Source: Lachnospiraceae bacterium (lineage in GTDB: Bacteria > Bacillota > Clostridia > Lachnospirales > Lachnospiraceae). Taken from it: a stretch of 48,444 bases of DNA. The notes under the pieces were generated by a model that saw nothing but the letters and a program-made list of their open reading frames with translations, was not told where the DNA came from and did no database searches. The stretch spans positions 1-48,444 of the forward strand of contig JAZNHY010000039.1 of assembly GCA_045577235.1 (NCBI GenBank), in the 5' to 3' direction. Shown piece by piece: positions 1-2,305 of the stretch (position 1 is the stretch's first letter; the number at the start of each line of letters is the position of its first letter). The position numbers were made by a program, and so were the translations under genes.

Positions 1-1383
1 ATCTGCAAGGATCTTTAAGATTGCCTCTTCACATTCAGCACCCTGGCATCTTCCCATTCCGGCACTCGTCCGGCGGCGGATCCCATTAATTGTCGTAGCT
101 CCTCTTTTCACAGCATCACGTATCATCCGTTCTGTGACCAGGTTGCAGGCACAGATGATCGGTCCGTCGACTGCACTATTATACCGAAGAACAGAAAATG
201 GTTCTGGTGGAATGCGGATCGGATCATAGTTGGAATTATCTTTTACCGTTCCAATCTGTTCTAGTACTTTTTGGGCAACTACTTTGCCTAATTCATAAGC
301 ACAGGTGATCCCAGGTGTTTTAATTCCAATCAGACTGATCATTCTGTCATCTTCTGCTATGTTGAAATCTGAAAGGTGTGCAGATGGATCATCATACAGA
401 TAGGGATTTGGTCTTGCAGAACCAAACTGATTTAATAAAGTGGATGCATCCATTTCAGGAAGAATATCTCTGGTAAAGGAAAGCAATCGTTCCAAATCTT
501 CCCGATCTGTTGCATACGTTGGCTGATCATCTGAATCTGACTCAGTTGCTCCAATGATCAGATGGCGATCAAGTGTAGGGGCTAATGTCAGTGCTTTATC
601 TTTTTGTTCCGGTTCATAAAATATGACCCGGGATACGGTACGCTCTTTTCCCTGTTCATATACCAGATAATTTGCTCTGGTGTGATGAATACCGATTGTT
701 TTCGGGAACAATAATTCACGTACAGATGGGGCTTCTGATCCGGCACAATTGATCACGTACCTGGCCATATAGGTATGTTCGGTATTATCCTGGCCGCTGC
801 TGAAAGACGTTTTCAATATGATCCCTTTGTCGGATGACTCACATGATTTCACTTCTTCCATAAATCGGAAAGAAACGCCATTTGCTCTGGCATTCTCAAA
901 AGCGGCGATTCCTAATTCCCATGGATTGACGACACCTGTTGTTTCCGCATATAGCGCCTTAGTGATGCCCTTTTTCAGATTCGGCTCCATCTGCTGAGCT
1001 TCTTCCCCGCTGATCAGCCTTAGGTTTGGAACACCGTTTTGCACGCCATGTTCCAGTTTCTTTTCCAGTGAACGATCTCCATATGGGCCATAAGATATCA
1101 TAAGGGAGCCGCAGCGATAGAATGGTACTCCAAGTTCCTTACACAAATCTTCAAATTCGCTGTTGGATCTGACGGTCAGCTCCGCTTTTAAGGATCTCGG
1201 ATGCATATCATATCCTGCATAGACAATACCAGTATTGGCTTTGCTGATCATCGTGCAGACATCTTCCCGCTTTTCCAAAACGATGGTTTTCAGATCATAT
1301 GCAGATAAAGCCCTGGCAGCAAAACAGCCTAGGACACCTGCACCAATTACCACAATATCTGCATACTCAGTTGAAGAATTCAT
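1..1383 (-). CDS. FAD-dependent oxidoreductase, GlpA / glycerol-3-phosphate dehydrogenase-like, with C-terminal BFD-like [2Fe-2S] domain (C-terminus runs off the window)
   Basis: Not in the ORF track because it is open at the window edge. My translation of the reverse strand from ATG 1383-1381 gives MNSSTEYADIVVIGAGVLGCFAARALSAYDLKTIVLEKRED..., a GxGxxG Rossmann FAD fold. The frame stays open to nt 1. The last residues read ...GPIICACNLVTERMIRDAVKRGATTINGIRRRTSAGMGRCQGAECEEAILKILAD, a CxC...CxxxxC BFD-like pattern. Confidence 0.75.
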   Translation of the reverse strand, partial: MNSSTEYADIVVIGAGVLGCFAARALSAYDLKTIVLEKREDVCTMISKANTGIVYAGYDMHPRSLKAELTVRSNSEFEDLCKELGVPFYRCGSLMISYGPYGDRSLEKKLEHGVQNGVPNLRLISGEEAQQMEPNLKKGITKALYAETTGVVNPWELGIAAFENARANGVSFRFMEEVKSCESSDKGIILKTSFSSGQDNTEHTYMARYVINCAGSEAPSVRELLFPKTIGIHHTRANYLVYEQGKERTVSRVIFYEPEQKDKALTLAPTLDRHLIIGATESDSDDQPTYATDREDLERLLSFTRDILPEMDASTLLNQFGSARPNPYLYDDPSAHLSDFNIAEDDRMISLIGIKTPGITCAYELGKVVAQKVLEQIGTVKDNSNYDPIRIPPEPFSVLRYNSAVDGPIICACNLVTERMIRDAVKRGATTINGIRRRTSAGMGRCQGAECEEAILKILAD

Positions 1384-1425
1384 TCGCAAAACCTTATCTG
1401 CTCATAACAATTGTACTTGTTTAGC

Positions 1426-1431
1426 ATTATA
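1426..1431 (-). promoter_or_regulatory. Candidate -10 box (TATAAT) for the FAD-oxidoreductase gene
   Basis: The reverse strand reads gcgtTATAATgc about 45 nt upstream of the ATG. No good -35 is present (TTCTGT at 17-nt spacing). Confidence 0.3.
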
Positions 1432-1484
1432 ACGCATATTCGGATAGAACAGAAGTATTCCATTTTATTTGATTTTAAAAATAA

Positions 1485-1802
1485 GGACCTAAAAAGAGCC
1501 TTATCATTCGGGCCTGAATAGAAAAAGAAGAATCCAGGCCCTATTTTTTACAAATCAAGAGGGCTCAAATAAAGGTGGTATGGATTTAGGCTCAACAAAA
1601 TCACATGAAAATTGGGCCTGTAAAAAAGATTTGCTAATCAGGCCCGACTTTTCATCAAATAATTCGGGCCCAAAAGTAACAAACTGTTATCAGGTACTAT
1701 TATTCCTGAAAATATTAGATCCTAAAAACAGATTTCTTAAAACAGGCCCTTATCATAATATAATTTTAGATCCTAAAAGAAAGGATCTCATATATAGGCC
1801 CT
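1485..1802. repeat. Degenerate tandem array with 52-nt period (about 26-nt half period) of GGNCC-type cores separated by A/T-rich spacers
   Basis: One series of cores starts at 1485, 1537, 1589, 1641, 1693, 1745 and 1797, exactly 52 nt apart. An interleaved series starts at 1510, 1561, 1614, 1666, 1718 and 1769. See findings. Confidence 0.7.
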
Positions 1803-1920
1803 AATACGAAATCTTCCGTTCCTTGCTCAGCTACTCTTTTTGATGAGTTTAGACAATGACGTACCTTCTGCATCTCTTTTCGGCATTCAGTCTTTTCATC
1901 ACCGTTTGATTACTTCATAT

Positions 1921-1956
1921 GAAGACAAGGAGACCCCTTTGGATCTCCTTGTCTTT
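1921..1956 (-). terminator. 13-bp hairpin 2 nt downstream of the tmRNA 3' end (termination or processing hairpin)
   Basis: gaagacaaggaga (1921-1933) pairs with tctccttgtcttt (1944-1956) across a 10-nt loop. There is no clean U-run after it on the minus strand, so confidence is moderate. Confidence 0.45.
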
Positions 1957-1958
1957 CA

Positions 1959-2305
1959 TGGAGCTGGGGGGAATCGAACCCCCGTCCGAAACCTCATCCG
2001 TAAAGCTTTCTTCCACTATAGTCATTGAAATTTTATTTCCCCTGCCCGGATCCCCAATGACAGACTTCCGTTCAGAGTAGCTTCATCAATGTTCTGTGCC
2101 TGCAAAGCTTAGGGTACAGAGTTCCCCGCAATGATGACGCCGGTGCGGCAGCAGCGGGCCTCTGCCGGCCGACGAGCTGCAGCTTAGGCAGCTAAAGCTA
2201 AATTATTGTTTTTAGCGTTTATTTTTAGTTGGATCTTTTTAGGTAGTTACCCGCTACCAGTGGCTTACTCTATTTCAAAAACCCCGTCGAAACCTTTACA
2301 GCCCC
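1959..2305 (-). ncRNA. ssrA: tmRNA (transfer-messenger RNA, SsrA)
   Basis: The reverse strand starts GGGGCTGTAAAGGTTTCGACGGGG and ends GGACGGGGGTTCGATTCCCCCCAGCTCCA. This gives a T-arm GGTTCGATTCC and an acceptor stem GGGGCTG/CAGCTCC with the G3:U pair. CCA is not encoded. An internal tag ORF is present, and smpB lies nearby. Confidence 0.95.
2184..2216 (-). other. tmRNA tag reading frame encoding AKNNNLALAA plus stop
   Basis: The reverse strand reads ...AAAATAAAC GCT AAA AAC AAT AAT TTA GCT TTA GCT GCC TAA. It has the typical Ala resume codon and the ALAA C-terminus. Confidence 0.8.

Follow-up and report, generated by a model that had tools for sequence, protein, structure and literature searches.

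The intergenic region between the transfer-messenger RNA (tmRNA) gene ssrA and a flavin adenine dinucleotide (FAD)-dependent oxidoreductase gene of a Lachnospiraceae bacterium carries an array of short GC-rich motifs, which lie 26 nt apart and alternate in orientation. The array is located on contig JAZNHY010000039.1 (GenBank assembly GCA_045577235.1), positions 1-48,444 of which were analysed and are referred to as the window. It is real and statistically solid, and its motif and phase have been maintained in evolution; it is also dispensable, and occurs at one locus in one lineage. We tentatively interpret it as a DNA-level cis element composed of phased protein-binding sites, a reading slightly favoured over a structured RNA and over a relic or selfish element.

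Architecture and periodicity of the array

The initial annotation described GG-initiated cores at 1485, 1537, 1589, 1641, 1693, 1745, and 1797 (GGACC, GGCCC, GGCTC, GGCCC, GGTAC, GGCCC, and GGCCC, respectively), with an interleaved series at 1510, 1561, 1614, 1666, 1718, and 1769. The positions of the first series are exact and those of the second are correct, and the nine GGNCC sites in 1440-1850 agree with the count given there. The 52-nt period that it proposed is significant against shuffled sequence. Single-base autocorrelation over 1470-1815 gives z=5.93 at lag 52 and z=5.66 at lag 104, above all 1000 dinucleotide-preserving shuffles, whose largest z over all lags is 4.43; 4-mer autocorrelation gives z=5.3 and z=5.9 at the same two lags. 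In addition, GGGCC or GGCCC occurs eight times in the 346-nt array, compared with 14 times in the remaining 48 kb. Tandem Repeats Finder (minimum score 30) returns no row for the array because the identity between units is too low.

With GGCC as the anchor, both series prove to be the same motif, which changes orientation at each step of exactly 26 nt. Therefore, the basic period is 26 nt and the oriented period is 52 nt. The common motif, which recurs every 26 nt, is roughly AAAWTN-GGGCCT-RAWW. When reverse-complemented, the flanks of the S-type cores match those of the F-type cores (both defined in Table 1), with column correlations of 0.8-0.99 at positions -8 to -2. On the gene-sense strand, a unit reads A.TA-GGGCCT-R, ~8 variable nt, a T-rich tract, Y-AGGCCC-GAA, ~14 variable nt, and an A-rich end. 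Matches to a position weight matrix (PWM) alternate between the plus and minus strands at 26-nt steps in the arrays of W type, L003, and L012, where W is the window sequence and L-numbers are syntenic loci of relatives, retrieved via the oxidoreductase protein.

The exclusion of a protein repeat by the initial annotation is sound, as the period is not a multiple of 3 and units in relatives change length by 1 nt. A small open reading frame (ORF) of 74 residues on the plus strand (1580-1804) is mechanical and was rejected, 52 not being divisible by 3. A second, permuted tmRNA called by ARAGORN ('tmRNA*', tag VPDNSLLLLGPNYLMKSRA, 1547-2051, minus strand) overlaps the array and the 3' end of the real tmRNA; it is almost certainly a false positive, the permuted-tmRNA model of Rfam scoring only 19.6 bits (E=0.66).

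Unit 1 of the window (1763-1790, minus strand) contains a perfect 7-bp hairpin of its own, AGATCCT-TTCTTTT-AGGATCT, which uses the degenerate S core AGGATC. A core of the AGGATC type is common to W and L012 (GGAATC in L003); its hairpin partner in unit 1 is not conserved.

Cores and spacing are conserved above the spacers

The W, L012, and L003 arrays can be aligned over ~300 nt in the same order, each unit with its counterpart. Length changes within the arrays are of single nucleotides: L012 has two 51-nt units, and L003 has one 27+25 pair that restores the 52-nt phase. The DNA on either side of the array shows gaps of 2-24 nt or is unalignable between lineages. In register, the cores are 81% (W-L012), 74% (W-L003), and 76% (L012-L003) identical, compared with 67, 54, and 52% for the spacers (Fisher test, p=0.026, 0.0037, and 0.0003, respectively). 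The difference is if anything underestimated, since faster decay is expected of G/C positions in an AT-rich context. Paralogous (out-of-register) spacers are ~38% identical, which is the background for their composition, indicating that there has been no concerted evolution. The 4-fold degenerate sites of the adjacent gene are 44, 45, and 39% identical in the same three comparisons. These comparative tests rest on three independent lineages, and their power is low throughout. The alignments indicate that the six units are old and not homogenised, motif and spacing having been kept while the spacers drifted.

One suggestion of the initial annotation, a decayed tandem duplication in which only the cores (and, as we add, the spacing) are kept, is supported by the greater conservation of cores than of spacers, by the 26/52-nt phase, and by the background identity of paralogous spacers. 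A purely neutral form of it, in which an old tandem duplication drifts and its cores persist because mutation or repair is biased (very-short-patch-type repair acting on methylated GGCC would be an example), is the least probable of the readings weighed here. The spacers are about neutral once recombination is allowed for, the array is dispensable (see below), and recent core changes are mostly G/C-to-A/T transitions, all of which this explanation accommodates. However, 13 paralogous sites keep a ~10-nt motif that includes flanks outside GGCC (T at -2, R at +1) above spacers at ~38%, and the smaller number of indels in the array than in the flanking DNA is left unexplained. Moreover, GGCC is not specially preserved elsewhere in the window, where its observed/expected ratio outside the array is 0.79. 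As this ratio is unremarkable, GGCC avoidance, or restriction-site logic, was also rejected.

The array is an accessory segment at the 3' flank of ssrA

An array like that of the window is present in L069, from the metagenome-assembled genome (MAG) RGIG5612 of sheep duodenum (which includes contig JAFWCK010000029.1), and in L149-151. L003/L004 (88.5% identical to W in the protein) and L012 (80%) have arrays too. The array is absent from L001, L002, L009, and L010 (about 90%), L011 (83%), L005 (81%), L143-145, and L147-148, the last two groups belonging to the same 90% protein cluster as the closest homologue of W. In L146 (90%), it is reduced to the last half-site TAGGCCCGAAT, at 250-300, which abuts both the tmRNA hairpin and the promoter; L146 is a natural deletion allele of the array. 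The conservation at the orthologous locus on which the initial annotation had made its case depend is therefore partial: cores and spacing are kept where the array exists, but the array is missing from many close relatives.

In many of the loci without an array (L001/L009/L010, L011, L143-145), a GC-rich segment of ~110 nt follows downstream of the tmRNA hairpin, either once or as two tandem copies. The segment runs GAATCGAAC...GGCCTGAAAGGC-hairpin-GGGATTCCCCCCAGCTCC, and its end is a copy of the tmRNA 3' end; L147/148 have a shortened remnant of it. From their sequence, these segments look like attachment (att) scars of elements integrated into ssrA, and window positions 1802-1918 look like an AT-decayed version of the GAATCGAAC...GGGATTCCCCCCAGCTCC scar. 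The array-less relatives also differ in their promoter regions. Together with the scars, this indicates that the 3' flank of ssrA is a recombination hot spot, of which the array forms an accessory and dispensable part.

Between W and the L069 group, 17% of 4-fold sites are changed, whereas divergence in the ssrA-intergenic tract is only 1.4-2.3%. Over window positions 1200-2300, the ssrA-intergenic tract is 98-100% identical between W and L069, compared with 80-96% for the flanking coding DNA and 83% for 4-fold sites. These differences are most simply explained if the tract linked to ssrA has recombined recently, with the conserved tmRNA gene as the anchor. Since the tract probably recombined recently, spacer identity above the 4-fold level does not signify constraint. 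Constraint on whole spacers, suggested by the 98.6% identity of W and L069, was rejected in favour of such recombination, as up to six intergenic differences are seen even between strains whose oxidoreductase genes are 99.8-100% identical.

The hot spot raises the alternative that the array is a relic or selfish element without a dedicated role at this locus, which we consider unlikely. It would be either a cis site (centromere, iteron, or site of recombination or transfer) left behind by an element once integrated into ssrA, or one locus of a dispersed family of the REP/BIME or STAR type. The flank in question shows one or two scar copies (GGGATTCCCCCCAGCTCC) and three different promoter regions among relatives; presence and absence of the array do not follow the oxidoreductase tree; the contrast between 4-fold and intergenic divergence suggests recent exchange; and the cores are degrading in W. 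In addition, many F sites begin with (A/G)TAGGG, resembling the GTAGG start of REPs, and BIMEs are alternating, regularly spaced REPs (PMC2817692). On the other hand, the surroundings of the array contain no mobile-element, par, or rep genes in any of the lineages, and the array of L012 is located outside the scar, on the promoter side. The cores have outlasted neutral spacers in three lineages. Such persistence requires ongoing selection and therefore a factor that still reads the motif. The searches for further copies also bear on this alternative.

Searches for further copies

With a PWM built from the relatives' arrays (threshold, at least 10 bits), 14 matches fall in the array of the window and six weaker ones in the rest of the 48 kb. 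A PWM built from all arrays gives alternating matches in arrays only in ~78 kb of relatives' loci, much of which is the same locus. Neither search gives a second copy, which counts against a relic or selfish element. A three-core pattern was scanned against 185,579 species genomes; among the at least ~119 matches listed, all are chance matches in GC-rich DNA except the orthologous locus of MAG RGIG5612, the one locus at which this species-representative genome is matched among those listed. The same pattern has four matches in viral contigs, all of them GC-rich chance, and an AT-aware one-hairpin pattern finds seven isolated hairpins and no arrays in metagenome contigs of the Joint Genome Institute (JGI). 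A blastn search in 'distant' mode gives no match in plasmids and phages. The lack of arrays in the metagenome, viral, plasmid, and phage scans likewise speaks against a relic or selfish element. In Rfam (E<=1), the first 6 kb of the window match tmRNA models only, and the relatives show tmRNA, thiamine pyrophosphate (TPP) riboswitch, and scattered sub-threshold matches, none of them on an array.

As to the possibility, named by the initial annotation, that the segment is one copy of a dispersed element, no other copies are seen, but only about 126 kb of the lineage was searched, much of it the same locus. As far as searched, the array occurs at a single locus and within one Lachnospiraceae lineage only; these results are compatible with the density of STARs, about one locus in 80 kb.

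Possible pairing of the cores as RNA

Neighbouring cores are complementary, and hairpins can be drawn in two registers, from F to S (A) and from S to the next F (B). It is possible, though rather less than probable, that the array acts as a STAR-like structured RNA. It would then be part of a gene-sense (minus-strand) transcript, either a 3' trailer from tmRNA read-through or the leader of the oxidoreductase mRNA, in which the alternating cores GGGCCUR and YAGGCCC would form a chain of hairpins in the two registers and affect RNA stability, processing, or termination, or bind a protein.

Several observations are in accordance with a structured RNA. Perfect stems of 7-10 bp form between adjacent cores in several units (-13 to -17 kcal/mol). 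The sense strand folds better than the antisense strand in all three lineages, with minimum free energy (MFE) z-scores against shuffles of -5.5, -5.7, and -5.3 compared with -3.8, -3.9, and -2.5. There are a few compensatory changes; for example, AAGCCC of L012 pairs with the next GGGCTT, and nine of the 60 pairs in the nested fold of RNAalifold are doubly changed. The hairpin that follows tmRNA has no U-run, so read-through into the array is plausible. The STAR repeats of Staphylococcus aureus, which have a GGCCC core, encode conserved stem-loops in untranslated regions (UTRs) (bioRxiv 10.1101/2023.05.16.541063; PMC3532100).

The pairing tests, however, do not single out the real neighbours. 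Partners re-paired at random give as many Watson-Crick pairs (P=0.75 and 0.64), and G.U-type and A.C-type mismatches are balanced (16 vs 17 and 19 vs 15). In the orthologue alignment, 73.8% of hairpin A is paired compared with 74.1% after column shuffling, and 65.0% of hairpin B compared with 64.3%; covariation shows no excess over column shuffles in either register in the three lineages. The covariation term of RNAalifold is only -1.25 kcal/mol, and several putative helices are mismatched in all lineages. The two registers are about equally stable, and the predicted global MFE folds differ between lineages. The loops are 18-20 nt in all units, a constancy unusual for hairpins. Rfam has no model that matches the array, and a promoter and terminator scan finds no terminator-like sites and three promoter-like sites where 2.4 are expected, none of them convincing around the array. 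On the same counts, intrinsic terminators and tandem promoters were rejected as explanations in their own right. The multi-hairpin RNA proposed by the initial annotation thus receives no support from the pairing tests, which have low power, but some from the somewhat better folding of the sense strand.

The array as a proposed set of phased protein-binding sites

The reading that we tentatively prefer over both a structured RNA and a relic is at the DNA level. The array would comprise ~13 recognition sites for one sequence-specific DNA-binding protein, each site being roughly T-N-GGGCCT-R with A/T-rich flanks. The sites lie every 26 bp, or 2.5 helical turns, in alternating orientation. With this spacing, the F sites all share one helical face and the S sites the opposite one, and within each set a site recurs every five turns. 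Binding could build an extended nucleoprotein structure in the ~320 bp that separate ssrA, which is strongly transcribed, from the oxidoreductase operon promoter; this structure might be an insulator, architectural or topological, or a platform for regulation. A strict spacing of 26+/-1 with free spacers, a single motif on alternate strands, and strand-symmetric substitutions are more typical of protein sites in duplex DNA than of RNA hairpins. The same reading is favoured by the conservation of cores and spacing above spacers, by the negative pairing tests, and by the lack of an Rfam match and of a convincing promoter or terminator around the array. It also has precedents: a centromere design in which every tandem unit has an inverted protein-binding motif is known from sopC (PMC3177203), and BIMEs hold alternating motifs at regular spacing to which gyrase or IHF binds (PMC2817692).

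Several results weigh against protein-binding sites. The ORF and Pfam survey finds no candidate binding protein nearby, the neighbours being housekeeping genes, and the motif is not enriched elsewhere in the 48 kb. The array is dispensable, being absent from L001, L005, L011, L143, and L147 and reduced to one half-site in L146. Simple dimers fit poorly with a 26-bp spacing, as adjacent inverted sites then face opposite sides of the helix. AA/TT power at 10.4-10.5 nt, a sign of intrinsic curvature, is not significant, and only AAA has a 52/5 harmonic. The better folding of the sense strand (see above) and the restriction to three independent lineages count on the same side. Within the clade of W, finally, cores carry more recent changes than spacers (5 of 78 compared with 4 of 240 positions, p=0.043). 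Four of the five core changes are specific to W, suggesting that the copy of the array in the window may be decaying. In particular, minus-strand cores that read GGGCTT and GGGCCT in four close relatives are GTACCT (1692-1697) and GAGCCT (1588-1593), respectively, in W; the GTACCT core, with three changes within four positions, could be a multi-nucleotide event or an assembly error.

The protein-binding array that the initial annotation considered agrees with the strict spacing and the strand symmetry of the motif, but neither a binding protein nor extra sites were found. A more elaborate version is very doubtful: an undescribed type of cis element in which two interleaved sets of sites on opposite faces, at an exact spacing of 2.5 turns, would organise a zig-zag or wrapped nucleoprotein structure that, as a topological or transcriptional insulator, separates the very highly transcribed ssrA from the next promoter, and which strains would exchange by homologous recombination as a non-coding accessory cassette.

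If a protein reads the sites, the array would be a compact natural case of a strictly phased, alternating-face site array in a gut or rumen Firmicute, and would offer a handle on DNA insulation or organisation next to RNA genes with very strong transcription. If it is instead the RNA that is read, the idea drawn from STARs and BIMEs, that repeat insertions functionalise UTRs, would extend to Clostridia. Either way, it is a non-coding cassette that has long been kept and yet is swapped or lost at an ssrA integration hot spot. At present, the array is a well-documented curiosity of one lineage and one locus.

Comparison with known repeat systems

STARs have a GGCCC-containing core, ~40-nt spacers, and units of ~55 nt; they probably function at the RNA level (PMC3532100; bioRxiv 10.1101/2023.05.16.541063). 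The array shares with them a short GC-rich GGCCC core in AT-rich intergenic DNA, poorly conserved spacers of ~40-46 nt whose sequences are specific to the locus, and units of ~52-58 nt, a handful per locus (PMC3532100; bioRxiv 10.1101/2023.05.16.541063). However, the 14-nt STAR motif TNTGTTGNGGCCCN, T(G/A/T)TGTTG(G/T)GGCCC(C/A), is not in the array; a single unit (TTTGTTGAGCCT; TTTGTTGGGCCT in L069) resembles it, which looks like chance. STAR motifs are direct repeats, whereas orientation alternates here every 26 nt; the F sites alone are direct repeats with 46-nt gaps, and an inverted copy of the motif lies midway between them. Moreover, STAR loci expand and contract between strains and amount to ~100 units per genome, whereas the array has six units in all lineages, at the one locus seen in the 48-kb window and ~78 kb of relatives' loci. 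STAR spacers contain covarying stem-loops, none of which was detected in the array (three lineages, low power). The hosts also differ, Staphylococcus in one case and Lachnospiraceae in the other.

With the BIME-2 and REP elements of Proteobacteria, which bind gyrase, IHF, and Pol I and form RNA hairpins (PMC2817692), the array has in common GC-rich motifs at regular spacing in alternating orientation and an intergenic position downstream of transcribed genes. Many F sites start with (A/G)TAGGG, resembling REP GTAGG, and TAG is found before GGGCCT in most F sites only. However, a REP is an imperfect palindrome of 20-40 nt that begins with 5' GTAG and forms a hairpin with itself, whereas the conserved part of the array motif is ~10 nt and has no internal hairpin. 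REPs number more than 100 per genome and are accompanied by the RAYT transposase; the array is seen at one locus within 48 kb.

The sopC centromere of F consists of 12 units of 43 bp, each containing an inverted repeat of 16 bp to which SopB binds (PMC3177203). Tandem units of ~50 bp, each with an inverted protein-binding motif at a fixed phase and together organising a large nucleoprotein complex (PMC3177203), would be common to both, protein binding to the array being putative. The units of sopC, however, are nearly identical and lie beside sopAB, whereas the spacers of the array are fully diverged and its half-sites are 26 bp apart rather than adjacent. There are no par or rep genes beside the array, which is surrounded by chromosomal housekeeping genes. 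Iterons usually recur every ~22 bp, unlike the 26/52 spacing here. CRISPR arrays, and CRISPR-like arrays without cas genes, also have a short conserved element at regular spacing and non-conserved spacers of fixed length, but the CRISPR repeat is 23-47 nt, compared with an alternating motif of 6-10 nt, and the array spacers are orthologous and stable between lineages, not acquired. No Cas families occur in the Pfam matches of the 20 larger ORFs of the window or among the genes around the relatives' arrays.

Lacking the STAR motif and a purely direct orientation, a self-folding GTAG REP, and par or rep genes, the array falls in no named family. Its kin are regularly spaced short GC-rich intergenic repeats, and it is a member of none of STAR, BIME-2, and sopC.

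Layout of the locus and neighbouring genes

On the minus strand, the order is tmRNA, hairpin, array, promoter, and oxidoreductase gene (Table 1). The candidate -10 element of the initial annotation fits a conserved TATAAT, which we assigned by conservation; the promoter scan did not list it. The hairpin directly 3' of tmRNA is presumed to be its terminator or processing hairpin. It has no clean U-run and is not called by the consensus terminator scan, and a counterpart is found at the same position in all relatives.

Table 1 Features of the ssrA-oxidoreductase locus. Positions refer to the window unless a relative's locus is named.
Feature	Position	Strand	Evidence
tmRNA (ssrA) gene, tag AKNNNLALAA	1956..2305	minus	ARAGORN; Rfam RF00023, 167 bits, E=3e-67
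Long hairpin GAAGACAAGGAGA...TCTCCTTGTCTTC, directly 3' of tmRNA	1919..1959	minus	fold prediction
AT-rich spacer, ~115 nt	1802..1918	minus	compared with L001, L009, L011, L012, L143
Array, 13 half-sites (6.5 units of 52 nt), 6-nt cores	1484..1801	minus	
F-type cores (GGGCCT on minus strand, AGGCCC on plus)	1796, 1744, 1692, 1640, 1588, 1536, 1484	plus coordinates	
S-type cores (AGGCCC on minus strand, GGGCCT on plus)	1770, 1718, 1666, 1614, 1562, 1510	plus coordinates	
Operator-like sequence GGAATACTTCTGTTC, -35 region of oxidoreductase promoter	1447..1461	minus	conserved in relatives
TATAAT -10 hexamer, oxidoreductase promoter	1426..1431	minus	conserved in W, L003, L005, L012, L146
FAD-dependent oxidoreductase gene (DAO and BFD-like [2Fe-2S] domains, GlpA-like), 5' part, 461 codons	1..1383	minus	
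GC-rich segments of relatives	L001 3720-3880; L009 100-290; L010 2760-2870; L011 190-315; L143/L145 ~1300-1420; L006 920-1260; L012 1-76		

The oxidoreductase gene starts at 1383 and continues past the edge of the window; its homologues carry PF01266 and PF04324. The neighbours of the array encode a C39-like peptidase, an ACT protein, a PaaK-like ligase, SmpB, SecG, the oxidoreductase, and an EamA transporter. Elsewhere, the window carries ordinary housekeeping genes (AlaRS, TyrRS, Rnf, RecG, DXS, iPGM, and others), nearly all on the minus strand. Homologues, from rumen and gut metagenomes, assign the organism to the Lachnospiraceae.

The operator-like palindrome in the -35 region is perfect in L012 (CGAACAGAATGCTTCTGTTCG) and occurs with and without the array. 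It is located at ~496-516 in L012, ~3940-3960 in L003, ~3915-3935 in L005, and ~265-285 in L146. Its TGTTCG/CGAACA half-sites are reminiscent of the operators of E. coli GlpR.

In relatives, a TPP riboswitch (RF00059, ~70 bits) lies upstream of a gene for a thiamine transporter of the ThiT/YuaJ type, at a distance of two genes downstream from the oxidoreductase gene and hence beyond the left end of the window (L004, 2986-3084; L009, 2776-2874; L011, 2813-2911; L012, 3004-3102).

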